This document shows positions 5,729 through 49,972 of a stretch of DNA of 64,000 nucleotides, piece by piece. Under the pieces are notes generated by a model. It was given only the letters and a program-made list of their open reading frames with translations. It was not told where the DNA came from and ran no database searches. The stretch is from an uncultured Clostridium sp. (GTDB lineage Bacteria; Bacillota; Clostridia; TANB77; CAG-508). A program made the position numbers and the translations under genes. The DNA lies in contig USFR01000006.1 in assembly GCA_900553945.1 (NCBI GenBank), forward strand, positions 52,948 through 116,947, read 5' to 3'. Each line of letters opens with the position of its first letter. Positions within the stretch are counted from its first letter, which is position 1.

Positions 5729-5953
5729 TCAATCTATTATTTCAGCATCATCTGGAATAGCAACATCATATATTGTATCACCACGCACTAACCATCTTAG
5801 TATGTTATCTTCTGTACTAAAGTTAAAACCGCCCATTTTTTGTGGGTCATGAACATTAGGATTCCAATTATTAGCAATATTTACTTTTCCTATCTTATAC
5901 TCAAAATCCGAGGCTCCAGATTTCGTTTTAAACATTACCTTTAAATACTTCAT
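5729..5953 (-). CDS. Small hypothetical protein (74 aa) overlapping the 3' end of the RhuM-family gene
   Basis: Protein-like composition (GGFNFSTEDNILRWLVRGDTIYDVAIPDDAEIID). The 26-nt overlap with the upstream gene suggests translational coupling. Confidence 0.45.
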   Translation of the reverse strand: MKYLKVMFKTKSGASDFEYKIGKVNIANNWNPNVHDPQKMGGFNFSTEDNILRWLVRGDTIYDVAIPDDAEIID

Positions 5954-6863
5954 TTGCTTGTTTATGTGAATTTTTTCCTTTTCCTTCTAAAACTTCATAA
6001 TGGAAAACTTTTAGGGCATTTTCTACTTCATTTTTCCAATCTTCCATATACATTGTTATGTTTCTCTCTGCATTATTTTCAGCAATATCCAAAAATAAGT
6101 TTACTAAATTATTTAAATTTTTAATTTCTTGTTCACTTAAATAGTTCTTGGCAATAATTACATCAGATTTTAAAATTTTCCCATCAGGTGAATTTTCCCA
6201 GGTAGTAAGTCCAATATTTTCTTTTTTAGAATTCACTCTTTTATAAACTATTTCAGCAGCAATGTTTCCAGTAATTGCATAATGAAATTTATTTTGAATT
6301 GTTTTATAAAAAGTTATTGCAGTATCACTATTTTTATCATAATCAATAGAACATTCAGCAAATATATCAGTAATTTTTTGATAAAACATTCTCTCGCTTG
6401 TACGAATTAATTTAATTCTTTCGAGTAATCTTTTAAAATACTCTTGATCAGATTTCTTTGCTTTTAAAAATCTTTCATCATTTAAAGCAAAACCTTGAAC
6501 CATATAATCTTTAATTATTTTATTTGCCCAAGTTCTAAATTTAATTGCTTTTTTAGAGTTAACTCGAAAACCTATTGAAATGATCATATCAAGATTATAA
6601 TATTTTGTATTATAATCTTGTTTGCCATTGTTACCCACATGTTCCATTTTGGAACATGTGCTTTTTTCTTCAAGTTCTTCGTCTTCATAAATATTATTTA
6701 TATGTTTCGTAATTGCTGGTCGTTTAACATTAAAAAGTGCGGCTAATGCTTTTGTATTTAACCAAACATCTTCATTTTCTAATAGTACTTCTACTTTTGT
6801 ATTACCTTCTTCATCATTATAAAATAAAATATTTTTCTCATTTCCAATTAATTTTTCTTTCAA
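5928..6863 (-). CDS. RhuM/DinD-family virulence-associated protein (N-terminal Bro-N/KilA-N-like DNA-binding region)
   Basis: NTKALAALFNVKRPAITKHINNIY ... DMIISIGFRVNSKKAIKFRTWANKIIKDYMVQGFALNDERF is characteristic of the Virulence_RhuM family. Confidence 0.7.
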   Translation of the reverse strand: MKEKLIGNEKNILFYNDEEGNTKVEVLLENEDVWLNTKALAALFNVKRPAITKHINNIYEDEELEEKSTCSKMEHVGNNGKQDYNTKYYNLDMIISIGFRVNSKKAIKFRTWANKIIKDYMVQGFALNDERFLKAKKSDQEYFKRLLERIKLIRTSERMFYQKITDIFAECSIDYDKNSDTAITFYKTIQNKFHYAITGNIAAEIVYKRVNSKKENIGLTTWENSPDGKILKSDVIIAKNYLSEQEIKNLNNLVNLFLDIAENNAERNITMYMEDWKNEVENALKVFHYEVLEGKGKNSHKQANEVFKGNV

Positions 6864-7030: not shown

Positions 7031-7046
7031 TTATTATATTATATAA

Positions 7047-7136
7047 TTACGCATTTTTTCCACAACAGTTTTTATACTTTTTTCCACTTCCACAAGAAGA
7101 CTTTATTTGTGTATTATCAATACTATAAAATACTAT
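7047..7136 (-). pseudogene. Displaced secA 3'-end remnant (encodes ...[17 protein letters not shown]), the distal att-repeat of the integrated island
   Basis: Minus-strand translation of 7047-7100 reproduces the SecA C-terminal zinc-finger tail. It is 41/48 nt identical to the genuine secA terminus at 14458-14505. Confidence 0.7.
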
Positions 7137-9922: not shown

Positions 9923-11200
9923 CTAATAAGCAATTTCATATTTAATAATATCTTCAATCGTTTTAGAACTCATTAAATCGTCAAATACATTACTTACATC
10001 TTTCTTGTTTTCATCAGTACTTGTTATATAAAAGTTTTCAGTAGTTTCTATATATTTGTGTCCCAAAATATCAGCAACATCTCTTATTTCTATACCATTT
10101 CTTAAATTAATTGTTGCATAACTTCCTCTTAAATCATAAAATCTACAATTTTTAATACCAAGTTCTTTATGAATTATCTTAAATGGATAATTTAAAATAT
10201 TTCTGCCAACATATTTACCATTAGGTCTTGTAAATACCATATCTGCTTTGTTTATTTGAAGGATATTACTTTCATTCTGCACAATTCGTTGTTCTACTAC
10301 TTTTCCATATTTATTGAGTACATCTTCAAAATGATAAGTGCAATATTCTTTACCATATAACTTTTTCATATACTGTTGTTTCTTTTTATAATTCGTTAGA
10401 GCATTATATACAGTTTCACACATATTAATTTGTCTTGTGCCTTGTTTAGTTTTAGTAGTGCCAATATACCATCTTCCTTTATCATCTTTTGGCTTATCAT
10501 ATACTGTATGCCTAACTTTTATAACTCTATTTTCGAAATCTATATCGTCCCAAGTTAAGCTACAAACCTCTCCTGTTCTCATTCCAGTAAAACAACTTGT
10601 AATAAATGCACAAGTAAAAGTATCATCATCTTTAAATCTATCTAAAATTAAATCAATTTCATTTTTATTATATAAATGTTTCTTAAAAGCCTTTTCATCT
10701 TCTATTTTTGGTAGTTTTAAAGTCAATGTTGGATTATATCTTATAAATCCATATACATCTGTTGCTATTCTAAAACAGTTTTTCAAAACTTTTAATATAT
10801 TTTTATAATATGATTTTTTATAGTTATATTTGTTGCATAAATCAACGATATATGAATTTAGCTTTACACTTGTTAATGAACTTAATCTATACTTGCCTAG
10901 TTCTGGTTTTAAATATTTATCCATTATTGTTTTATAAGTTCTTCTTGTATTATATTTCAAGTTTATTTCACAATAATTTTCATACCAGTAATCTAAATAA
11001 TCACTAAATGAAATTGCTTTTTCTTTAAAACTCAAACCAGTGTTTAAATATTCTGTATAAGCAATATTTCCTGCTTTAATTGCTTCATCTTTTGTTTCAA
11101 ACCCAGATTTATTTATAAATTTTCTTTTGCCATCTACTTTAGCTACTTCAAATTTATATTGATAATATTTGCCTCTTTTCTGAATTGTAACATTACCCAT
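9923..11200 (-). CDS. Tyrosine-type site-specific recombinase/integrase (int1)
   Basis: 425 aa. N-terminal SAM-like region. C-terminal catalytic region with R...HxxR...Y context (DLRGSYATINLRNG ... HKYIETTENFY). Paralog of the 12941-14212 integrase. Confidence 0.85.
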   Translation of the reverse strand: MGNVTIQKRGKYYQYKFEVAKVDGKRKFINKSGFETKDEAIKAGNIAYTEYLNTGLSFKEKAISFSDYLDYWYENYCEINLKYNTRRTYKTIMDKYLKPELGKYRLSSLTSVKLNSYIVDLCNKYNYKKSYYKNILKVLKNCFRIATDVYGFIRYNPTLTLKLPKIEDEKAFKKHLYNKNEIDLILDRFKDDDTFTCAFITSCFTGMRTGEVCSLTWDDIDFENRVIKVRHTVYDKPKDDKGRWYIGTTKTKQGTRQINMCETVYNALTNYKKKQQYMKKLYGKEYCTYHFEDVLNKYGKVVEQRIVQNESNILQINKADMVFTRPNGKYVGRNILNYPFKIIHKELGIKNCRFYDLRGSYATINLRNGIEIRDVADILGHKYIETTENFYITSTDENKKDVSNVFDDLMSSKTIEDIIKYEIAY

Positions 11201-12940: not shown

Positions 12941-14212
12941 TTACAGAAATTTACAAATCTTCTCAAATTTATTTGCTGTCTCACTTTCCATCTTTTCTGT
13001 TACTCTCACATATATATTATAAGTAGTATCAATATTTCTATGTCCTAGCCTTTTTGAAACTGCTTTTATATCCGCACCTGATTCAATAAGTCTTGTAGCA
13101 TGAGTATCTCTAAAGTCGTGAAATCTACAAGGAATACCTAATTCATAATGTATAACTTTGAATGGATATTTACAACTATCAGTCCCCTCATATACTCCAT
13201 TTTTCTTTACAAAAACAAAATCTACTTCTTCCAACGCAACATCAATTTCAGAATATGCATTTATTATTTTTGTTTCTGTTTTATTATTATATGGATTAAC
13301 AACACTCTTTTTATAATGTTTCATATATGTATCGCCATAATTAATTTTATTTTCTTCTTGCTCTTTTTTATAAGTTTTAAGAGCATTTAATAAAGTATCT
13401 CCTATTGGTATAGTTCTATAGCTTGTTTCTGTTTTACAAGTTCCAAAATACCATACTGTAGTTGAATTACCACTTATATGTCTTTTCTTTGTACCACCAT
13501 TTTGATTCTTTTTTAGTATGTTTTTATTTACACTAATTGTTTTATTTCTAAAATCTATATCATTCCAAGTAAGTGCAAATACTTCTGCAATTCTTAATCC
13601 TGTACAATATGCAGTTAAAAAAGCATAATATATACAATGATTATTTTTAAACCTATCTAAAATAAGATTTATTTCTTCATTTGTAAATATATGAGCTGGA
13701 TCATTTGGTGGAACATCATATTTTGGAAGTTTCAATCCTATTGATGGATTTGTCTTTATTAAGTCATTTTCATAAGCATAAGTAAATGAGCCTTTTACAA
13801 CTTTTTTAATATTATTTAGAAAATTCTTACTAAATGATTTTTTGATGTAAATACTATTTATAAACTCTTGTAAAGTTGACCTAGTAATTTGTGATATTTT
13901 ATAAAAACCAATATTAGGCTTTATATGATTTTTTACAATACTACTATATGCTTCAATTGTATGATATTTTAAGTTTATATAGCAATAATTTTGTATCCAA
14001 TAATCTAACAAGTCTGCATAGCTCATATCACTTGGCTCAAAACCGTGTCCTGTATTAATATAATTATTATATGCAATTATCCCCTCTCTTTCTGCTTCTG
14101 CTTTTGTTTTAAATCCTGATTTGTTTGCAAACTTTCTTTTACCATCAACCTTTGCAATTTCAAATTTGTATTGATAGTATTTTCCTCTCTTTTGAATTGT
14201 TACATTCGACAT
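12941..14212 (-). CDS. Tyrosine-type site-specific recombinase/integrase (int2), adjacent to the secA attachment site
   Basis: 423 aa. N-terminus is near-identical in pattern to int1 (MSNVTIQKRGKYYQYKFEIAKVDGKRKF). C-terminal HDFRDTHATRL ... GHRNIDTTYNIY catalytic region. Confidence 0.85.
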   Translation of the reverse strand: MSNVTIQKRGKYYQYKFEIAKVDGKRKFANKSGFKTKAEAEREGIIAYNNYINTGHGFEPSDMSYADLLDYWIQNYCYINLKYHTIEAYSSIVKNHIKPNIGFYKISQITRSTLQEFINSIYIKKSFSKNFLNNIKKVVKGSFTYAYENDLIKTNPSIGLKLPKYDVPPNDPAHIFTNEEINLILDRFKNNHCIYYAFLTAYCTGLRIAEVFALTWNDIDFRNKTISVNKNILKKNQNGGTKKRHISGNSTTVWYFGTCKTETSYRTIPIGDTLLNALKTYKKEQEENKINYGDTYMKHYKKSVVNPYNNKTETKIINAYSEIDVALEEVDFVFVKKNGVYEGTDSCKYPFKVIHYELGIPCRFHDFRDTHATRLIESGADIKAVSKRLGHRNIDTTYNIYVRVTEKMESETANKFEKICKFL

Positions 14213-14457
14213 TTTTCATTTCTCCTTTCCTTTTTCGAATGTAAACATTATAATTTAATTCAAAAATAAAAATGCTAACACGAATGCTAACATTTTTATT
14301 TATTATATTCACTTTGTTTGCAGGTTTAAACTTCTTTATTTTCAAGCATTCCAGAGATTTTGTCCACTTATATGAAAACATTTTGCAAACAAAATGTAAA
14401 CAATTTGGCATGTTTTCATATTTATGTTTACTTATCTAATCTCTGAAAGTATTGATA

Positions 14458-17214
14458 TTATGCGTTTTTTCCACAACAGTTCTTGTATTTCTTTCCACTT
14501 CCACATGGGCACAAGTCATTTCTACCTACCTTAGGTCCTTCATTAACTATTGGTGCTTTCACTTTTTTCTTTTCTTCTTGAGCAAGCTCAGGATTAATCA
14601 TTCCATCAATATCTTCTCTACCTTCACCAGTAATTTTAACTGTGCTTCTTCTTTCATATCCTTCACGTTTCTTTACGCACATTAAAATTTTAGCTACCTC
14701 TAATTTGATGCTATTGATCATTTCTTCAAACATATCTGAACCTTCAATTTGATATTGAATAACAGGATCTTTTTGTCCATAAGCACGAAGTCCAATACCA
14801 TTTTTTAATTCATCCATGCTATCGATATGATCCATCCATTTTGAATCAACAACTTTTAATAAAACAATTCTTTGAAGCTCTTTGAATGGTTCTTCTCCGA
14901 TTTCTTCTTTTTTGGCTTCATATATTGCTAATGCTTTTTCTTGCATTTCAGCTAGTACTTCATCAGCATCAACTTTATCTTTCTTTAATGAATCTAATTC
15001 TTTTATGTTTAATCCGTTTTGTACTTCAATTAAGAAAGCAGCTGTATCAGGATTTTTCTCTGAAAGCTCAGCTCTATAAGTATCAACTATTAAAGCACAA
15101 GCTTCTCTTATCATATTTTTAATTGATTCTGTAACATCTTCTCCATCAAGAACTTCTCTTCTTTGTGTATAAATAATCTCTCTTTGAGTATTCATAACAT
15201 CATCATAGCTTAATACATGTTTTCTTATTGAGAAGTTTCTACTCTCAACTTTCTTTTGAGCAGATTCAACAGCTTTTGAAATTGGCTTAAATTGAATTGG
15301 CATATTTTCATCAGCTTTTAATGCATTATATACAGCAGTAACTTTATCACCACCAAATATTTTCATTAAATCATCATCAAGTCCAATATAGAATATTGAT
15401 TCTCCTGGATCTCCTTGACGACCACTACGTCCACGTAACTGGTTATCAATTCTTCTTGATTCATGTCTTTCAGTACCAATGATTTTCAAACCACCAGCAG
15501 CAATAACTTTTTCTTTTTCTTCTTTTATTTGTTTTTTGAATTTCGTTTCTAATTCGTTAAATGTTTTTCTAGCTTCAATAACTTTTTCATCTTTTGTTTC
15601 ATTATGAGCAGAAGCTTGATTTATAAGATCGTTAGTATATCCAGCTCTCTTCATTTCTTGCTTAGCCATATATTCAGTGTTTCCACCAAGCATAATATCA
15701 GTACCACGACCAGCCATGTTAGTAGCAATTGTAACAGCACCATATTTACCAGCTTGAGCAATTATTTCAGCTTCTTTTTCATGGAACTTAGCATTCAACA
15801 CTTCATGAGGAATTCCAGCTTTTTTAAGTAATTTACTTAATCTTTCTGATTTATCAATTGAAACTGTACCAACCAATACCGGTTGTCCTTTTTCATGAGA
15901 TTTTTTAATATCCTCAACAACAGCATTAAATTTAACTTTTTCATTTTTATATATAATATCGTTTTTATCATCTCTTGCAACTGGTAAGTTTGTAGGAATA
16001 CAAACAACATCCAAATTATAAATCTCTCTGAATTCTTCTTCTTCTGTTTTAGCTGTACCAGTCATACCAGATAATTTGTTGTACATTCTAAAGTAATTTT
16101 GGAATGTGATATTTGCTAAAGTTTTTTGTTCATCAGCAATCTTTACACCTTCTTTAGCTTCAATTGCTTGATGTAAACCAGCATTATATCTTCTTCCATA
16201 CATAATTCTACCTGTGAACTCATCAACAATTAAAACTTCTCCATCTTTAACGATGTAATCTTTATCTCTCTTCATAACGCCATGTGCTTTTAAAGCTTGG
16301 TTAACATTATGAACTATATCTGTATTATCTAAATCATTGAAGTTTTCAACTTCAAAGAATTCTTCAGCCTTCTTAATACCTTTTTGTGTCAATGTAGCTG
16401 TTTTGGCTTTTAAGTCTACAATGTAATCATATTTTTCATTATCTTCTAATTGAGCTTCATCTTTAATATCTTCTTCAATAATAACTTTTGCTTGTAATCT
16501 TTTTACAAAATCATCAGCTCTTTTGTATAAATCAGATGATTTATTTGCTCTACCAGATATGATAAGTGGTGTTCTAGCCTCATCAATCAAGATACTATCG
16601 ATCTCATCAACAATTGCATATTCTAATCCTCTTTGAACCATATCTTCTTTGTGAATAACCATGTTATCTCTCAAATAATCGAATCCATATTCATTATTTG
16701 TTCCATATGTTATATCACATGCATATGCTTTTTGTTTATCTTGTTGATTCATTCTTGAAATATTTAATCCAACAGATAAACCTAAGAATTTATATAATTT
16801 ACCCATCCACTCACTATCTCTCTTAGCTAGGTAATCATTAACTGTAATTAAATGAACACCTTTTCCTGTAAGTGCATTTAAGTATATTGGTAATGAAGCA
16901 ACTAATGTTTTTCCTTCACCAGTTTTCATTTCAGCAATTCTACCTTGATGTAATATAATACCACCAACTAATTGCACATCATAATGTCTCAATTCTAAAA
17001 CTCTTTTTGATGCCTCTCTTACAACTGCAAATGCTTCTGGTAAGATATCATCAAGAGTTTTGCCTTCAGCTAATTGTTTCTTAAAATAATCTTTTTTAGC
17101 TCTTAGCTCTGCATCTGTTAACTTTTCCATTTCAGGTTCTAAACTATTAATTTTGTTTACTATAGGTTGAACTCTTTTTACTTCTTTTTCACTATAAGAT
17201 TTAAATAAACCCAT
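14458..17214 (-). CDS. secA: Preprotein translocase subunit SecA
   Basis: 918 aa with DEAD-like motor motifs and the C-terminal zinc-binding tail [17 protein letters not shown]. Confidence 0.97.
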
Positions 17215-17336: not shown

Positions 17337-17900
17337 ATGCGTATTTATAATTTTAAAATCAATAAAAACAAGTTATTTAAAGGGATTCTCCTTTTTTTCA
17401 TTATGATTTGTTTGGTACTTTTAATTCTTTCTGTTTATAAACTTTTTTTTGAAATGAAACATTATAATTCAGAAAATTTTGTAGTTAATGATACTTGTAT
17501 TTCTGATAACGATACTACAGAACTTAAATCCAATCAATATACAAATGTCTTAAAAGCAGTTCACGAAAATATTGATGATTACATTGGTAAAGAAATTACC
17601 TTTGTAGGCTATATCTACAGAATCAACTATCTACAAGCAAATCAATTTGTTCTAGCAAGAAATATGATTGTTAATCAAGCAAATCAAACGGTAGTTGTTG
17701 GATTTTTATCTGAATATGACAAAATAAATGACTTTACGAATTGCTCATGGGTTAAGGTTACAGGAAAAATAAAAAAAGGTTATCTAGATGGAGACATTCC
17801 AATACTAGAAGTAACTAAAATTGAAAATGTTGAAAAACCTACAGATGATTTTGTTTATCCACCAGACGAAACCTATATTCCAACAAGTGCTACCTTCTAA
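17337..17900 (+). CDS. Membrane-anchored hypothetical protein (DUF1980/TIGR03943-like permease-associated subunit)
   Basis: N-terminal TM helix followed by a soluble domain. Divergently adjacent to an AI-2E-type permease. Confidence 0.45.
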   Translation: MRIYNFKINKNKLFKGILLFFIMICLVLLILSVYKLFFEMKHYNSENFVVNDTCISDNDTTELKSNQYTNVLKAVHENIDDYIGKEITFVGYIYRINYLQANQFVLARNMIVNQANQTVVVGFLSEYDKINDFTNCSWVKVTGKIKKGYLDGDIPILEVTKIENVEKPTDDFVYPPDETYIPTSATF

Positions 17901-18966
17901 AAATAGCTTTAGAACTAGAAAAGAAATTCATAACTATAATTAACACAATTGGTCCAATTAAAAGTCCAATTATCCCACTAAATTTAAATCCAATGTACAT
18001 AGAAATTAACGTATACAACGGATGGATACCTAAATGAGTTGAAACAATTTTAGGCTCTAAAAATTGTCTTACAAGCGATATAAAAACTAATAACCCAATA
18101 ATACAAATTCCCAGTGTAACATCGCCCATAATAATCTCAATTATTCCCCAAGGCAACATTACTGTTCCAGAACCGAGTATTGGAAGTAAATCAACAAAAC
18201 CAATTCCAAGTGCAATCAAAAACGGCGATTTTACGTTCAACCCAACAAATTTAAAAATATATAATCCAATCAAAACTAATATAAAAGAAATAAAAATCAA
18301 AATTAATTCAGCTTTCAAATACTTTCCCATTACCAATGTTGTACTCTTAAAATGTTTGTTAGCCTTTCTAAGCCATCTTTTAGGAACCTTCTGTTCTAAA
18401 TCATCTAATATTGACAATCTATCTGTGCAAATAAAATAAGTAGCCAAAATAGTAATAACAAAATAAATAACAAAAACAGGAATCTGGGTTATCATATTCA
18501 AAATTCCAATTAAAAAATTCTTAAAATACTCAAGCATATGTGATATTAATCCATTAGTCGCATCATTTATGATATTCTTTACCTGAGGAGAAACATTTAA
18601 GCTTTCTATTTTTAAAAAGTTACTTATCTCCGCCACACCATTAAAAACATTATTTCCAAAGCTACTAAAGTCTTTTAATAAATTACTAGTTTCAGAAATT
18701 GTAGCAACACTAATTAAAATAATAACTCCTATTAAAATCGCAAATATCAAAATCAAAGAAATTACAGCCGATGCTTTTCTCACTAATTTAGTTTTTTTAC
18801 TTATAAATTTTATAATTGGATCTATTAAATTAGCAATTATCAAAGCAATTAGAAAAGGCATGAAAAAACACGCTAATTTTAGCACAACAAACACCATAAA
18901 AAATGTGAAAATACTATATAAAATCCTTTTTATAATTTTATTCCAATAACACATATCGATAATCAT
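17890..18966 (-). CDS. AI-2E family transporter (YtvI/PerM-like integral membrane protein)
   Basis: 358 aa with about 8 TM segments and an AI-2E (UPF0118)-like architecture. Confidence 0.6.
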   Translation of the reverse strand: MIIDMCYWNKIIKRILYSIFTFFMVFVVLKLACFFMPFLIALIIANLIDPIIKFISKKTKLVRKASAVISLILIFAILIGVIILISVATISETSNLLKDFSSFGNNVFNGVAEISNFLKIESLNVSPQVKNIINDATNGLISHMLEYFKNFLIGILNMITQIPVFVIYFVITILATYFICTDRLSILDDLEQKVPKRWLRKANKHFKSTTLVMGKYLKAELILIFISFILVLIGLYIFKFVGLNVKSPFLIALGIGFVDLLPILGSGTVMLPWGIIEIIMGDVTLGICIIGLLVFISLVRQFLEPKIVSTHLGIHPLYTLISMYIGFKFSGIIGLLIGPIVLIIVMNFFSSSKAIFRR

Positions 18967-19027
18967 TAAACATACCTCTTTTGGGTAGTATGTTTAATTT
19001 CGAATATAAATATACTTAACTATAGCA

Positions 19028-19150
19028 GAAATCAACTACTTTATTTTTAAATGACACGCAGTTTGAAAGTTTTTACCTAACCGACTAAACAAAGTTTAGT
19101 TGGTGGTAAAATCTTTTAGCAAGAAATTTAAAAATAAAGTAGTTGATTTC
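19028..19150. repeat. MITE-like palindromic element, copy A: 25-bp terminal inverted repeats flanking a ~73-bp structured core
   Basis: TIR gaaatcaactactttatttttaaat (19028-19052) against its reverse complement at 19126-19150. The core is homologous to 42685-42755 in inverted orientation. Confidence 0.7.
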
Positions 19151-19347
19151 TTTTTATTAATAAAAGGAAAATACATATAAAATTTTTTTACACCTTACTG
19201 TCGCATTCCTCAGAATTTTAAAATAAAATTTATCAATTTTATTTTAAATTCGGGTAGAATGCTTCAATCGAACTCACTTCGTTCGTTTGGTCCCTGCGCG
19301 GTGATTCAAAAATTTTATATGTATTTTCCTTCAGATTACAAATTAAT

Positions 19348-19386
19348 AAAAAAACTCATCACCAAAACTGACGATGAGTTTTTTAA
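19348..19386 (-). terminator. Rho-independent terminator of the 19393-19791 gene
   Basis: aaaaaactcatc-(loop)-gatgagtttttt, the same stem sequence as the terminator at 26968-27003. Confidence 0.6.
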
Positions 19387-19392
19387 AACGGA

Positions 19393-19791
19393 TCACTTTT
19401 TAAAAACTAAAAACACAATAGCAGCAACTACTACTCCAACGACAGCACCTGTGATAATCAGTTCCGCCGATTTCAGGATTACTCCCCAGAAAATCAGCAA
19501 CATCAACGATGCCATGAATAATATCACCACTATCAAAATAGCTGCAACCTTAGCATCGTTTTCCTCGATTGCCGTTATGGCTACATATGGACCTACCAAG
19601 AGCGAAAAAGCTAAATATCCATATGTCAAAAAGCCAACCAGCAGTGCAGCAATCAAGCCAACACGGGTTTCATAGCCTACCTGGTAGACTTGTATTTCGT
19701 AGAATATAAATCCTACAAATACTGCAATTGCTAAAACACCCTTCCAAACTTTCAAGTTCCGTTTTCTTTCCTGCATAAAACACACCTCCAT
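19393..19791 (-). CDS. Small 4-TM membrane protein encoded in a GC-elevated (about 40%) insert
   Basis: Four clear hydrophobic helices. Likely start at the internal MQERKRNL. Codon usage is G/C-richer than neighbouring genes. Confidence 0.55.
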   Translation of the reverse strand: MEVCFMQERKRNLKVWKGVLAIAVFVGFIFYEIQVYQVGYETRVGLIAALLVGFLTYGYLAFSLLVGPYVAITAIEENDAKVAAILIVVILFMASLMLLIFWGVILKSAELIITGAVVGVVVAAIVFLVFKK

Positions 19792-35133: not shown

Positions 35134-36105
35134 CTACAATATATTCATAGATTCTACCTGAACTTTTCCAAACCTTGGTGTTCTTTCATTACCAACTGCC
35201 GTACTTCCAGGCTCTATGCTCATATTAAGTGCATTTACTGGTTTAATTTCATGGTATACAACAAAATCATGTTCATACATATTCAAATAACTGCGTTTTT
35301 CATATGTATTTCTTTTTATAATATGAGACAATTTTTTAAACAAATTATCCGTATCCAAATCAACATAAGAAAAAACTTTTTCAGAACTCTCATCACCTTT
35401 ATTTTGAAAATCAATTTCAAATAAAAAAGTTGGAGCCTCTTTTAATTCTATGTTTTTATTCATAATTTCATAATAACCTACCAGCTTTAATCCTACATTT
35501 AATTCATCCTCCTGCAACGATTTAACCGTTTTGCACAAAGCATCAAAACTATTTTTATTTCTACAATCAATCTCACACGCTAATCGTATTTTATTCTCCT
35601 TATTTAACTCATAAGCGCCTTTAATTGCAGACCTATATAGTTGCTTACCAATTCCTTTTACTTTATTTCCATACACGTCAAAAATATTCTGCTTTGCAAG
35701 AACCCCTGTTATAAACATCACATTTTCATTTGAAGTTGGGAAAAACGGATTATTAGACTTTTTTAAATTATTTTCAATTTTAACTGTTGTTGCTCCAATA
35801 ATATCATTTTCACCAAACTCATTTCTCTGCGTTGCAAGTATAACAGGATACTTAGTCACATTTTGATAAACCTGTGAAACATCCGGCACATGCATAAAAT
35901 CTTTGTTACCAATAAAATTCTGGTCATAAAAATAAGTTAATTTCAAAATGCCATTTAAAAAATCTTTTTCTGGCAAAGATTGAAACAAATTAAATTTAAT
36001 ATTTGATTTCTCTTTCAGTTCCTCCATTTCTTTAAAATATTTTTTGAATACAGTCTCTTCAAGAGACATCTGTATTCGCGGTTTTGCTTTTTTCTTTTTC
36101 TTCAT
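35134..36105 (-). CDS. GNAT-family N-acetyltransferase domain protein
   Basis: Motif A-like NKVKGIGKQLYRSAIKGA after beta-strand FITGVLAKQ. Lysine-rich N-terminus; the true start is probably at MSLEETVF. Confidence 0.55.
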   Translation of the reverse strand: MKKKKKAKPRIQMSLEETVFKKYFKEMEELKEKSNIKFNLFQSLPEKDFLNGILKLTYFYDQNFIGNKDFMHVPDVSQVYQNVTKYPVILATQRNEFGENDIIGATTVKIENNLKKSNNPFFPTSNENVMFITGVLAKQNIFDVYGNKVKGIGKQLYRSAIKGAYELNKENKIRLACEIDCRNKNSFDALCKTVKSLQEDELNVGLKLVGYYEIMNKNIELKEAPTFLFEIDFQNKGDESSEKVFSYVDLDTDNLFKKLSHIIKRNTYEKRSYLNMYEHDFVVYHEIKPVNALNMSIEPGSTAVGNERTPRFGKVQVESMNIL

Positions 36106-40281: not shown

Positions 40282-40704
40282 TTAAACAATTGCAAAAGTA
40301 AGTTCACCTTTAGCAACAATTTTTCCATCACAAGTTGCTAAAGCCTCTCCAACACCAATTGGACCTTTTTGTTTTATGATTTTTACTTCTAATTTTAAAA
40401 CATCCCCAGGAACAACTTGCTTTTTAAAACGCATCTTATCAATTCCAGCAAATAAAGCATTTCTACCTTTATTTGCTTCTAAACTCAATATTGCAATAGC
40501 TCCTGTTTGGGCTAAACTTTCAGTAATTAAGACTCCAGGCATTATTGGATTTCCAGGAAAATGGCCCTTAAAATACCATTCATTTTCACTTACATGTTTA
40601 TATGCAATAGCTGATTCGCCAGGTACATATTCTTCAACTTCATCAATCATCAAAAAAGGTTCTCTTTGAGGTATGATTTGTTTTATCTCATTTTTGTTTA
40701 ACAT
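40282..40704 (-). CDS. fabZ: 3-hydroxyacyl-[ACP] dehydratase FabZ
   Basis: 140-aa hot-dog fold with [15 protein letters not shown] active-site motif. Confidence 0.9.
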
Positions 40705-40740
40705 ACTTTACTCCTTTTTATTTATTTCATTATCCTTTAC

Positions 40741-40909
40741 GTCAGAAATATAAAAATAAAATTTATGATTGCGACGTGAGAGATGGTAGTAGAAAATCTT
40801 AGAAAAATCAATTAGGGAATCTCACAGGAATGAGGGCGCTGATTGATTTTTCTTAGAATTTCTAAACCACGAAACGAGCCAAAATAAAATTTATTTTTAT
40901 ATTTCTGAC
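40741..40909. repeat. Palindromic MITE-like element, copy C (169 bp): near-perfect 24-bp TIRs plus nested internal inverted repeats, between fabZ and accB
   Basis: gtcagaaatataaaaataaaattt at 40741-40764 against its reverse complement at 40886-40909. Inner IR tagaaaatcttagaaaaatcaat / attgatttttcttagaatttcta. Confidence 0.65.
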
Positions 40910-40921
40910 ATAATTGTTAAT

Positions 40922-41359
40922 CTATATAATTCTAAATAAAGCTTTCCCATATTCAACAGCTTCACCATCTTTTATAAAAATCTCTGCAATTTCGCCATCA
41001 AACTCTGATTCAATTTCATTCATAAGTTTCATGGCCTCTATAATGCAAAGCACATCCCCCTTTTTAACATTCTTTCCAACCTCAACATAAGGATTAGCAC
41101 TCGGATTAGGTTTGATATAAAAAGTACCAACCATCGGAGACTTTACAATTTTTCCTGTATCTTCATTACTTGATTGCTCTGACTTAAGCTCCTCTTTCTT
41201 AACTTCTTGACTAGAAGATTTCATTGCTTTAGTTGATATCTCAACATTTTTATTTTTCTTCATACTGATCTTTGTACCATCAGGAAAATCAATATGAATA
41301 GAAGATAATTTTGAGTTTCCCATATCATCCATTAATTGTTTAATTTTCTCATACTCCAT
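40922..41359 (-). CDS. accB: Acetyl-CoA carboxylase biotin carboxyl carrier protein
   Basis: C-terminal biotinyl domain with the EAMKLMNEIE motif. Confidence 0.9.
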   Translation of the reverse strand: MEYEKIKQLMDDMGNSKLSSIHIDFPDGTKISMKKNKNVEISTKAMKSSSQEVKKEELKSEQSSNEDTGKIVKSPMVGTFYIKPNPSANPYVEVGKNVKKGDVLCIIEAMKLMNEIESEFDGEIAEIFIKDGEAVEYGKALFRII

Positions 41360-41376
41360 TTTAATTCACCTCATAA

Positions 41377-42624
41377 TTAATTCATTTTTCTAAATATAAT
41401 ACTTGCGTTATGCCCACCAAATCCTAAAGAATTAGACATAACTACATTTAAATCTTTTTTTATAACCTCATTTTGAACAATATTTAAATCACATTCTAGA
41501 TCTGGTACTTTATAATTAATCGTTGGTGGTACAATTCCATTTTCTAAAGCCATAGAACAAATAACCGCCTCAACACCACCAGCAGCACCCAGCAAATGAC
41601 CTGTATTACCTTTAGTAGAACTAACTAAAACATTATTCCAATCTTCTCCCATAACTTTTTTAATAGCCATAGTTTCGCAAGAATCATTCAAATGAGTAGA
41701 AGTTCCATGAGCATTTATGTAATCAATATCTCTAGCTAAAATACCAGCATCTTTAATTGCTCTATTCATAGCATTTACAGCTCCTGCTCCATCAGGGCAA
41801 GGAGAAGTAATATGATAAGCATCCGAAGTAGCGCCATACCCAATCACTTCGCCATAAATTTTAGCACCCCTTTTTTTAGCATGTTCATATTCCTCAAGAA
41901 CTAAAATTCCAGAACCTTCACCCATTACAAAACCAGATCTCTCTTTATCAAAAGGAATACTCGCTCTATTTTTATCAGTAGCACTAGAAAGAGCTTTCAT
42001 GTTTTCAAAACCTCCAATACCAACTTCACAAATAGAAGCTTCAGCGCCACCAGCTAAAATTACATCTTCATAACCATGTTTAATAGTTCTATAAGCCTCA
42101 CCGATAGCATGAGTAGAAGATGCACACGCAGTAACAATAGAAACAGATTCACCCTTAAGTCCAAGTTCAATAGCAATATTTCCAGCAGGCATATTAGCAA
42201 TAGACATAGGTATAAACATAGGTGAAATTCTATTATGTCCCTTCTCCAAATTAACCTCACATTGATTTTGAATTGTAATCAAACCACCAATACCTGAACT
42301 AACAAAAATACCAACATTATTAAAATCTGTATTCTCCTCAGAAATACCAGAATCAGCAAACGCTTCTCTAGCAGCAATCAAAGCAAATTGAGAAGACCTA
42401 TCCAAACGTCTAGTCTGTTTCACGTCAAAATAATCATGTGGATTATAATCCTTAACTTCAGCATCCATCTTGGTTTTAAAAGTTTCTGGATTAACTAACT
42501 TCATAGTATCGACACCACAAACTCCATTTTCAATTCCATTCCAAGTCTCTTCGACATTTTTTCCGATAGGAGTTATACAACCTAATCCTGTAACAACAAC
42601 TCGTCTATTACTCATAGCACTCAC
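41377..42624 (-). CDS. fabF: 3-oxoacyl-[ACP] synthase II
   Basis: 415-aa thiolase-fold KAS with active-site Cys (VTACASSTHA) and His motifs (NAHGTSTH, GHLLGAAG). Confidence 0.93.
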   Translation of the reverse strand: MSAMSNRRVVVTGLGCITPIGKNVEETWNGIENGVCGVDTMKLVNPETFKTKMDAEVKDYNPHDYFDVKQTRRLDRSSQFALIAAREAFADSGISEENTDFNNVGIFVSSGIGGLITIQNQCEVNLEKGHNRISPMFIPMSIANMPAGNIAIELGLKGESVSIVTACASSTHAIGEAYRTIKHGYEDVILAGGAEASICEVGIGGFENMKALSSATDKNRASIPFDKERSGFVMGEGSGILVLEEYEHAKKRGAKIYGEVIGYGATSDAYHITSPCPDGAGAVNAMNRAIKDAGILARDIDYINAHGTSTHLNDSCETMAIKKVMGEDWNNVLVSSTKGNTGHLLGAAGGVEAVICSMALENGIVPPTINYKVPDLECDLNIVQNEVIKKDLNVVMSNSLGFGGHNASIIFRKMN

Positions 42625-42657
42625 CTTTCACAATTTATTTTTAAACAATTAATTTTT

Positions 42658-42780
42658 AAAAATATTATATTTATTTTTTCGTTCCTTGCTAAAATATTTT
42701 CCCGCCTACTAAACTTCGTTTAGCAGGTTAGGGAAAAACTTTCAAACTGCGCGTCACTCAAAAATCAAATATAATATTTT
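42658..42780. repeat. MITE-like palindromic element, copy B (inverted relative to copy A), between fabG and fabF
   Basis: 71-bp core 42685-42755 is the reverse complement of 19053-19125 with compensatory stem changes. Flanked by its own ~21-bp TIRs aaaatattatattt[a/g]attttt. Confidence 0.65.
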
Positions 42781-42816
42781 CTTCTATGATTAATAATTGT
42801 CAAAACGATTTATTAA

Positions 42817-43548
42817 TTAAATTAATCCCCCTGTAACTGGAATAACTGTCCCAGTAACATAACTTGAAGCTTCGCCGCATAAAAACTCCACAACACCAGC
42901 CACGTCTTCAGCTGTTCCCATTCTTTTTAAAGAAATTTTCTTAGCAATCTCATCTCTAACAGAATCGCTCAAAACAGCCGTCATATCTGTTTCAATAAAT
43001 CCCGGTGCAACAGCATTTACTAAAATATTTCTAGAACCAAGTTCTCTTGCCAAACTCTTAGTAAAACCAATAATGCCAGCCTTAGAAGCAGAATAATTAG
43101 CTTGTCCTGCATTTCCTTCTATTCCAACAACAGAAGAAATATTAACAATTTTACCAGATCTAGCTTTAACCATATATGGGACAACATTTCTAGTCATATT
43201 GAAAGTACCAATTAAATTAACATCAACAACACTTGAAAAATCTTCAGGCTTCATTCTCATAAGCAACATATCTTTTGTAATACCTGCATTATTAACTAAA
43301 ACATCAATTTTACCGAACTTATCAAATATTTCTTTTGCAATTCTCTCACAATCCTCGAAAGAAGAAATATCTCCTTGAACAGGTAAACAATCTACTCCTG
43401 CTTTTTCAATTTCTGATTTTGTATTAGTTAAGTCATCATTTTCTTTTCTATAATTCAAAGCAATATCAAAACCAGCATTAGCCAACCTAATAGCAATTGC
43501 TTTACCAATTCCTCTTGTAGCACCCGTAATTAAAGCAACTTTAGCCAT
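42817..43548 (-). CDS. fabG: 3-oxoacyl-[ACP] reductase FabG
   Basis: SDR motifs TGATRGIGKAIA, NNAG, and YSASKAG catalytic region. Confidence 0.92.
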   Translation of the reverse strand: MAKVALITGATRGIGKAIAIRLANAGFDIALNYRKENDDLTNTKSEIEKAGVDCLPVQGDISSFEDCERIAKEIFDKFGKIDVLVNNAGITKDMLLMRMKPEDFSSVVDVNLIGTFNMTRNVVPYMVKARSGKIVNISSVVGIEGNAGQANYSASKAGIIGFTKSLARELGSRNILVNAVAPGFIETDMTAVLSDSVRDEIAKKISLKRMGTAEDVAGVVEFLCGEASSYVTGTVIPVTGGLI

Positions 43549-48289: not shown

Positions 48290-49972
48290 CTACCTCATCA
48301 CCTTGTAAATCTTACAACCAACATCTCCATCATCATCAAGTAAAACTTCATAATTTGAAAAGCCAGTTTTCTCAATAACTTTAGCCAAAATCTCATCAGC
48401 ACCTTTGTACTTCTTTATACTCAAAATAAATTCATTTTCTTCTGAAAGCTTAGAATCATTTTCCAAAACATCTAATTGATTTTCATTCAATATTAAACTC
48501 TCACTATATGTCTCAAACTCAGGCATACTTTGAATATGATTAAAAGCTGTGTCTCCAACATACACGAATTTATCTTCCTTATTTTCTTCAGCAATCTCTA
48601 AATATTTAGCATAGCCCTTATAAAGAAAAGCAGGTTCACTAAACATTAATCCATAAACTGAAATTACCAATGAAATTCCAACTAAACTATATTTTAGCAC
48701 ATTTTTATTTTTAATAACAGTGTCAATTAACAATAAAATCGAAATAATTATTAACGGTAACACACACATTATATATCTTATAATATTTGCATCTTGTAAT
48801 TCTGGTGAAACCTTTACAATAACACAAACATAACAAATTACAGAAAATATAATCGCACTTGCACCTAAAACATTTTTATCAATTTTCTTATCAATTACAG
48901 ATTTAACAGCAACCACCATACCAAATAAAATCAAACATATAGCAATAGCAAAAACAGGAACTGAAAAAGAATATCCAATCATATTCAAATACTCTACTAA
49001 CTTTTCTCCGAACCCTCTTGTCATCTCAGCTTTTCCAACTCCACGATATGAAAAGAAAATATGATTAATACTCAATGGATAAAACAATACACCTATTACA
49101 GCCATTTTTAAATATTTCAAAATATACGTTATAGCGCCCTGTTTTCCTTGTTTTCTTATCACTCCTATTAAAACTAAAACCGCAACCATTCCAGCAACAA
49201 TGCAAAAATAATATTGCGTCCAAAATCCAAGTAAAACAATCCAAGTAAGTTTATTCCATAATTTTTTATCTATATCAAAATCTTTTTTTATAATATCAAT
49301 GTTAGCTGAAATAAACATTAAAACAAAGAAATTAAGCATAGAATACATTCTCTGAAAAATAACCGTTGAAATCGCTCCCATACTGAATCCGTACAAAATT
49401 AAAGTAGGAATTATTAAATACTTTTTATCCAATTTTTCAAAAATATTTTTTATAGTCCACAAACTTAAAACCATAAAAACAAGATTAATACCAAAAATAA
49501 TATACTTTGAAAAATGCCCCATAAAAAATATTGAAACTGTATGTACTAAAAAATAAAAAAGAGGCGGATGAATATCACGAGATTGATTATAATAAACCAT
49601 TCCATAATTTAATGCATCCTTTGGCTGAATAGTTAAATAATCATTTGCCTCATCCGAACTTCTCCATGTTGGAACAAATTCAGATTTAATATCAACCAAC
49701 GTTTCATCCTTTATATCTCTATGATCAATTAAATAATACTTCAAATTTTGAAAAATATTGCCATTCATAATTTTTTCTTTAACAAAAATATTCGTTTCAT
49801 CTTCCTTGCCATAAGGTCTGTAAACATTGTCATAAGCGTAATTAGACGAACCATAAGAAAACATTTCATCCTCATGAAAACCTTCCTTTTTTGTCATAAA
49901 AAACGTCATAACAACACTAATAACTAAAATAACAATAATATATTTATAATTCTTTTTAAAAAATTCCTTCAT
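48290..49972 (-). CDS. Polytopic membrane protein, putative GT-C-fold glycosyltransferase (ArnT/PMT/YfhO-like)
   Basis: 560 aa with about 12 TM helices and an N-terminal FHEDEM acidic loop motif. Confidence 0.45.
   Translation of the reverse strand: MKEFFKKNYKYIIVILVISVVMTFFMTKKEGFHEDEMFSYGSSNYAYDNVYRPYGKEDETNIFVKEKIMNGNIFQNLKYYLIDHRDIKDETLVDIKSEFVPTWRSSDEANDYLTIQPKDALNYGMVYYNQSRDIHPPLFYFLVHTVSIFFMGHFSKYIIFGINLVFMVLSLWTIKNIFEKLDKKYLIIPTLILYGFSMGAISTVIFQRMYSMLNFFVLMFISANIDIIKKDFDIDKKLWNKLTWIVLLGFWTQYYFCIVAGMVAVLVLIGVIRKQGKQGAITYILKYLKMAVIGVLFYPLSINHIFFSYRGVGKAEMTRGFGEKLVEYLNMIGYSFSVPVFAIAICLILFGMVVAVKSVIDKKIDKNVLGASAIIFSVICYVCVIVKVSPELQDANIIRYIMCVLPLIIISILLLIDTVIKNKNVLKYSLVGISLVISVYGLMFSEPAFLYKGYAKYLEIAEENKEDKFVYVGDTAFNHIQSMPEFETYSESLILNENQLDVLENDSKLSEENEFILSIKKYKGADEILAKVIEKTGFSNYEVLLDDDGDVGCKIYKVMR

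Follow-up and report, generated by a model that had tools for sequence, protein, structure and literature searches.

Several intergenic gaps in the 64,000-nucleotide stretch of DNA from an uncultured Clostridium sp. analysed here (the window; A/T-rich, at 25-32% G+C, with the majority of its genes on the minus strand) hold long palindromes, and the question they raise is whether these are mobile DNA, structured RNAs of the host, invertible switches or products of the way in which palindromes mutate. Hairpin repeats have been investigated in depth in proteobacteria, in Neisseria, in pneumococci and in the Bacillus cereus group, and low-G+C uncultured Clostridia dominate many human guts. A sequence-only reading had proposed two copies of a MITE-like element with a common core, plus a third element with a different core, and had taken pairing conserved through sequence drift as a sign of selection on structure and not just transposition. 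The elements, with one adjacent terminator, were delimited as follows.

19027-19151, plus strand: family-1 hairpin element, copy A (fold, inverted repeat, covariance-model match)
42655-42784, minus strand: family-1 hairpin element, copy B, in the spacer between fabG and fabF (the hairpin itself spans 42658-42780)
40729-40921, no strand assigned: hairpin element C (arms 40729-40766 and 40884-40921, interior 40767-40884)
19164-19331, minus strand: family-2 hairpin element D (24-bp perfect outer stem, three-way-junction interior)
19349-19384, minus strand: intrinsic terminator of the upstream 132-aa ORF, outside the elements

Copies A and B each form a single long hairpin. In copy A the outer stem, formed by a perfect inverted repeat of 26 bp (19027-19052 and 19126-19151), encloses a conserved core of 73 nt (19053-19125), while the arms of copy B form a 21-nt inverted repeat that is 90% complementary (42659-42679 and 42760-42780), and the two copies match in inverted orientation at 83% over 102 nt, or 86% once aligned. 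Both the inverted match of the cores and the possession by each copy of its own terminal repeats, with pairing kept, had been read correctly from the sequence. Copy A folds at -55.3 kcal/mol (z = -12.0 against shuffled sequence) and the minus strand of copy B at -43.5 kcal/mol (z = -7.3 against shuffled sequence), the plus strand of copy B reaching only -29.6; scores with the family-1 covariance model (R1) were 130.2 bits for copy A and 141.7 bits for copy B. An A:T to C:G change had been placed in the apical hairpin; a clean A:U to C:G swap does exist, but it sits in the neighbouring stem (UUUUUACC/GGUAAAA versus UUUUUCCC/GGGAAAA), and the apical differences between A and B are G:U to U:A and A:U to G:U. 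Through these G:U pairs the apical hairpin is fully paired in both copies solely on the A(+)/B(-) strand.

Copy A is antisense to both of its flanking genes, which encode an AI-2E transporter (17890-18966, minus strand) and a 132-aa protein (19393-19791, minus strand), and it lies with element D between the terminator at 19349-19384 and the start of the transporter gene. Copy B runs in the direction of the fab operon, whose order by Pfam matches and ORF calls is fabD, fabG, copy B, fabF, accB, element C, fabZ, accC, all on the minus strand. It is bracketed by fabG (42817-43548) and fabF (41377-42624), both on the minus strand by Pfam, and ends 33 nt upstream of the GTG start of fabF (42624). 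Element C, the expected third element with a different core, extends over 40729-40921 in the spacer between accB (40922-41359) and fabZ (40282-40704), both on the minus strand by Pfam, and its arms form a 38-nt inverted repeat that is 87% complementary. The intergenic placement of the elements, two of them inside the fab operon, was thus borne out by the Pfam context. Between the fabG stop and copy B, positions 42776-42803 of the minus strand hold a perfect -35 hexamer TTGACA, a 16-nt spacer and GAAAAT, which by their sequence may form an internal fabF promoter independent of element B.

A covariance model built from 13 copies gave 93 forward-strand matches of 101-153 bits in human-gut contigs and three related MAGs, corresponding to 77 distinct sequences and about 51 distinct sites. 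The sequence-only reading, which had called for a genome-wide search for the core, had left room for there being only the copies in the window; with 93 matches at about 51 sites, they belong instead to a multi-copy family. The three MAGs (CAKPEG01, USQZ01 and CAMCHB01, deposited as uncultured Clostridia or Clostridium) came from a search that covered one genome per species; at least 10 copies were present in one MAG, and contig L052 bears two. Copies number in the tens per genome, and the per-genome counts are lower bounds, because the search pattern CGCAGTTTGAAAGTTTT also matched AAQFESF, a coding motif of RND efflux pumps that has nothing to do with the family. A more specific pattern occurred in 77 stretches among human-gut metagenome contigs and in none of the viral contigs; phage and plasmid collections likewise gave no family-1 match, and carriage by phages or plasmids was rejected on these grounds. 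Contigs encoding an identical FabG came from human-gut metagenomes and carry copy B unchanged. Several Logan contigs terminate exactly at the start of the core, as expected because the core is a repeat, and the short-read contigs L005-L008, L202-L204, L206 and L212 stop within copy B or at its edge, which indicates that the repeats fragment assemblies of the host species.

All family-1 copies are intergenic, 11 of them between convergent genes and one between divergent genes, as is usual for repeats of this sort. Cores are more than 90% alike and distal arms vary strongly among copies: copies agree in the junction and in the innermost 12-15 bp of their arms, the outermost 8-12 bp differ with compensation inside each copy, and subfamilies have whole arm variants in common. 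A search with FabF for related species with an empty fabG-fabF spacer returned only same-species proteins of 98-100% identity. Contigs L082 and L115 were considered as carriers of a flipped copy at the fab locus and rejected, the adjoining 243-aa ORF not being FabG by BLASTP; an origin from tRNA was also rejected, no tRNA having been detected in the window. In the literature, no description was found of the family in low-G+C uncultured gut Clostridia. The family is a previously uncatalogued set of non-coding hairpin repeats of about 125 bases in an abundant uncultured human-gut bacterium.

In the model-based alignment of the 77 family-1 sequences, 97.3% of cells were paired, and 26 of 47 pairs showed double changes, a level reached in none of 500 shuffles. 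Double-changed cells numbered 250, compared to 62 ± 6 in the shuffles and 17-39 when the 3′ partners were slid, and all 16 pairs of the outer stem covary. Because this alignment had been fitted to the structure, the test was repeated: 47 site representatives were aligned with MAFFT alone, and on this alignment RNAalifold returned the identical fold de novo, with 20 of 39 pairs compensatory. The covariation that had been predicted for a larger alignment is therefore supported in both. The unpaired junction, with GACGCGCAG as its 5′ block and AGCAAGGA as its 3′ block, is nearly invariant as well; the search pattern itself dictated part of the 5′ block, while the preceding GAC and the whole 3′ block were free to vary. 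The compensatory half of the claim of selection on structure rather than just transposition is thus statistically supported, but the two are not separable, as propagation may itself need the fold. That keeping the hairpin is a condition of spread has been argued for both REPINs (PMC3116915) and bcr1 (PMC3184786).

Such covariation, with nearly invariant unpaired nucleotides at the junction, would also suit a structured RNA with a host function, acting in cis within operons or as a multi-copy small RNA, whose hairpin and junction are selected and which binds a protein or controls how neighbouring messages are processed, terminated or kept stable. In 15 of 16 family-1 copies the A(+)/B(-) strand has the better fold, owing to G:U pairs, and there are 161 G:U cells to 28 A:C cells (91 to 28 once a single nearly fixed pair is left out), which hints at one functional strand in family 1. 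Counted by positions, the excess is only 23 versus 15, so much of the asymmetry in cell counts may stem from founder copies. All intact copies of B across 39 same-species contigs are sense in the fab operon, and the joining strands of the three-way junction in family 2 are conserved, both as a host RNA would have it. Against this, orientation is random among family-1 copies between co-directional genes (13 sense, 12 antisense), copy A is itself antisense, copies are dispensable in some strains and nested in one another, and family 2 is without strand asymmetry. Rfam gave no match for the elements even at E ≤ 10, apart from generic microRNA-hairpin models far below threshold, and known RNA families and ribozymes were rejected as their identity. 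The absence of a terminator-like signature on any of the four elements also counts against such a role; in the vicinity, calls were confined to the true terminator (19349-19384) and a weak site of 5 pairs within the AI-2E transporter gene (18858-18873), and a terminator function was rejected. The random gene orientation and the empty Rfam search weigh against the structured-RNA part of the sequence-only reading in particular, and we consider a host RNA quite unlikely.

Element D, which begins 12 nt from copy A and was absent from the sequence-only reading, has at least 19 distinct relatives, here called family 2. Elements of both families are one long imperfect hairpin whose outer stem is A/T-rich and 20-35 bp long and whose interior is family-specific. 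The interiors are unrelated, whereas the A/T-rich outer stem and the asymmetric junction GCGCAG ... CAGCAAGG are held in common, within an end motif TTTTTGA[A/G]T[G/C]AC(C)GCGCAG ... CAGCAAGG[A/T][A/G][C/T]GAAAAA. The family-2 interior is a three-way junction, composed of a short hairpin, of which two covarying versions exist, and a long arm whose tip varies in length, and 12 of its 37 pairs are compensatory across 19 copies. Its strands are balanced: the forward strand is the more stable in 11 of 19 copies, with 23 G:U against 11 A:C.

Members of the two families often lie 10-15 nt apart, and family 1 is inserted within truncated family-2 copies in L126, L160 and L177. In L052, positions 5806-6270 hold one family-2 copy followed by two tandem family-1 copies that overlap by one arm length, a small array of elements. 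In the window, D was inserted between copy A and the terminator at 19349-19384. The 12-nt spacer between A and D and the ends of both elements form a further palindrome at 19130-19187 (CTTTTTATTAATAAAAG), D having been inserted at its edge, and A/T-rich palindromes adjoining existing elements may be preferred targets.

Gain or loss of whole elements was seen between strains. The same-species contig L165 is without exactly positions 19167-19348 of the window, its surroundings being identical, and the missing segment comprises the D hairpin plus a 17-nt extension on one side; contig L151 is without a family-1 copy found in L137. Precise deletion, instead of a state preceding insertion, could in principle account for either empty site. 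No repeats adjoin the hairpin ends of family 1 as a target-site duplication would, and the longest direct repeat flanking these elements within 35 nt averaged 6.52, against 6.36 ± 0.18 in mismatched controls. Element D is flanked by the repeat ATTAATA(AAAG), which cannot be scored as a target-site duplication because it is itself palindromic. Copying of the distal arms from the target site was rejected, there being no such palindrome at the empty sites and one site having alleles with different arms. No pair of junction motifs flanked an ORF, as an autonomous copy would, in 836 kb of related contigs; the window showed neither a transposase nor a RAYT gene, and no invertase adjoins the elements. 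The MITE-like label therefore fits in part: the elements are multi-copy and act like mobile, non-coding inverted-repeat DNA, but they have no target-site duplication, their distal ends differ and no parent insertion sequence was found in the window or the 836 kb.

The two tyrosine integrases of the window (9.9-14.2 kb) belong to an island beside secA.

14458-17214: secA

A 49-nt direct repeat (88%; 7046-7094 and 14457-14505) brackets about 7.4 kb ending at the 3′ end of secA, and this stretch contains both integrases (9923-11200 and 12941-14212), a DnaB-like AAA_25 protein, NUDIX proteins and a PBECR nuclease, with a RhuM-family gene (5928-6863) just outside it. The bracketed stretch probably represents one integrative element, or possibly two in tandem, together with attachment-site repeats. 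Inside this apparent integrated island lies a skipping-rope RNA (Rfam RF02924; 7428-7511, minus strand; 69.1 bits against a gathering score of 36.7), the only Rfam match in the window. Elsewhere in the window, the ORFs at 348-1961, 35134-36105 and 48290-49972 (537, 323 and 560 aa) had no Pfam match at E ≤ 1e-5.

At several family-1 sites the element lies in opposite orientations in different contigs. L164 and L154 differ by a clean flip with arms and flanks unchanged; in other flipped pairs the arms and nearest flanks differ too, and L182 differs from L145 and L147 on one side, which points to rearrangement between copies. Element C was found at no site other than that between accB and fabZ, and its 118-nt interior is 98-100% identical in 39 same-species contigs in either orientation, window-like in about 25 and flipped in about 14, although the flanking genes are 99-100% identical. 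These observations, with the clean flip and the further flipped pairs, speak for invertons, in which a site-specific recombinase would invert the stretch enclosed by the arms and orientation would set expression, for instance of fabZ and accC downstream of C. Orientation of C, however, always goes with one or the other of two arm and flank haplotypes, and none of the 39 contigs is recombinant, a pattern more suggestive of two old alleles than of a running switch. The interiors are near-palindromic, so both orientations look alike; copy B was never flipped; no invertase adjoins the elements, and the two integrases are genes of the island. A promoter-like TTAGCA-N17-TATAAT reads outward from the 3′ end in 29 of the 47 family-1 representatives, which would suit an expression switch, but such matches were no commoner than in shuffled sequence, and in only 19 of 44 cases does a co-directional gene lie ahead of the putative promoter. 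Inversion by a dedicated recombinase is accordingly highly improbable in our judgement. A promoter function as such was rejected: the -35/-10 match is good but inconsistently used, and it is absent from copy A.

Changes inside resident copies raise another explanation, namely that the compensatory pattern is largely mechanical, produced by template switching and by gene conversion from arm to arm or copy to copy, with no selection on the fold. Copy B is intact and in the fab sense in about 35 of the 39 same-species contigs, and four contigs carry derivatives of it. In L221 (1089-1119) the apical triloop is inverted (AAAC-GAA-GTTT to AAAC-TTC-GTTT), a 3-nt flip such as template switching in a palindrome produces. 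L219 (1102-1201) and L231 (1035-1201) show slippage deletions bounded by short direct repeats; one derivative has lost 104 nt between GAAGAAAAT and GAAAAAAAT, leaving a solo 3′ arm, and another has lost the 3′ arm between AAAAATAAAT repeats. Downstream of B, the spacer before fabF in L207 contains a 15-nt tandem duplication (AATTGTTTAAAAATA). In L215 (1-1200), seryl-tRNA synthetase and a GTPase stand upstream of copy B in place of fabD and fabG; the junction falls at the 5′ end of copy B, the flank resembles that of another copy (L195), and the contig is a rearrangement between copies. L026 contains a chimeric copy with arms from two subfamilies.

The triloop flip, the slippage deletions, the rearrangement and the chimera all show such mechanisms acting at these loci, and the perfect 26-bp stem of a copy as divergent as A is what they would leave behind; part of the compensation in the stems may be mechanical. 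The G:U (G:T) pairs, such as that at columns 46:105 in 70 of 77 sequences, remain frequent and uncorrected, though, and the single-stranded junction is conserved too, which arm-to-arm copying cannot account for; both speak against a mechanical origin as the full explanation. Whole arm variants common to subfamilies are, moreover, as expected of master copies still able to spread. A largely mechanical pattern is, in our view, a serious but rather unlikely explanation. Simple copy-and-decay, for its part, fails to predict distal arms that differ so strongly around cores that are more than 90% alike.

The elements are present in some strains and absent from others, are nested in one another, keep their pairing through double substitutions and have a nearly invariant junction. 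We therefore favour, as probable though well short of certain, a superfamily of small, non-autonomous, non-coding MITE/REPIN-like hairpin repeats in which the hairpin-keeping lineages spread by means of a presumed trans-acting enzyme. Such an enzyme would copy the elements by recognising the folded single strand at the junction, more likely as DNA than as RNA, and only lineages that keep the hairpin would continue to spread, which would produce perfect stems with drifting sequence. Once resident, the palindromes would serve as substrates for template switching and homologous recombination, giving rise to the flips, slippage deletions, chimeric arms and rearrangements. Elements inside operons, such as B and C in fab, would be co-transcribed as a very stable RNA hairpin that probably changes transcript processing or decay as a side effect. 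In the fab operon, conceivable effects are RNase III-type cleavage, a barrier to exonucleases or internal initiation at TTAGCA-N17-TATAAT.

A bolder version, which we regard as very unlikely, is a new class of hairpin-borne mobile DNA whose enzyme reads GCGCAG / CAGCAAGG and whose flips within operons, such as that between accB and fabZ, act as a heritable switch of processing or read-through; the switch is proposed because the two orientations fold with different stability. If a dedicated enzyme does read the common junction, it would represent a new mobilisation system, and if flips alter operon expression, they would be a new kind of heritable switch. The family matters in any case: short-read assemblies break at its copies, its sites are places where strains differ by rearrangement, deletion and inversion, and it puts very stable hairpins into essential operons such as fab.

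REPINs are REP doublets mobilised by RAYT (TnpA-REP) transposases. Like them, the elements described here are non-coding hairpins of roughly 100 nt that lie outside genes and number tens to hundreds of copies, without target-site duplication, clustering side by side, restricted to a single lineage and absent from phages and plasmids. In contrast to REPINs, whose two flanking REPs are conserved around a variable spacer, it is the centre and the junction that are conserved here and the distal arms that vary; the GTAG or CGTC head of REP is absent from the 77-sequence consensus, and the elements are A/T-rich and belong to a Clostridia lineage, whereas REPINs are G+C-rich. The fold of REPINs is likewise kept by compensatory changes (PMC3116915). 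The bcr1 element of the Bacillus cereus group, of about 155 bp, is transcribed, and compensatory changes keep its RNA structure (PMC3184786). It resembles the present elements in being found in Firmicutes and mobile between strains, but its insertion sites show a 5-bp direct repeat and it folds into two hairpins, in contrast to the single long hairpin of family 1 or the three-way junction of family 2 with no duplication, and no sequence similarity to bcr1 was detected. Membership in REPINs or bcr1 thus fails on defining features, there being no GTAG head, duplication or known enzyme.

Flip-flop of loops between short inverted repeats is well known in plastid non-coding DNA, and with such inversions, as with bacterial invertons, the elements have in common a segment between arms that occurs in both orientations at one site, on a scale from the 3-nt loop of L221 to the 118 nt of element C. 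Unlike invertons, they show no sign of a dedicated invertase or promoter switch, and orientation is linked to the flank haplotype. SPRITE-type terminator-like repeats have a G+C-rich stem followed by a T run, a signature called on none of the four elements. Classical bacterial MITEs of the Correia/NEMIS, ERIC and RUP type, whose RNA hairpins are processed by RNase III or RNase E, are marked by conserved terminal repeats, by TA or longer duplications and sometimes by known parent insertion sequences, whereas here the extreme ends are copy-specific, duplications are not detectable and no parent element was found in the window or in 836 kb of related contigs; the small size, the lack of coding capacity, the dispersal over about 51 sites and the empty sites in L165 and L151 are features of classical, DDE-transposase-derived MITEs all the same. 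Correia/NEMIS elements of Neisseria, ERIC of enterobacteria and RUP of pneumococcus come close in their terminal inverted repeats, their intergenic or intra-operon sites and their co-transcription as long hairpins, which is predicted here as well, and also in their size of 100-170 bp and their outward promoter-like motifs (PMC3184786). In general type, the elements of this uncultured gut bacterium belong with MITEs, REPINs, ERIC and bcr1.
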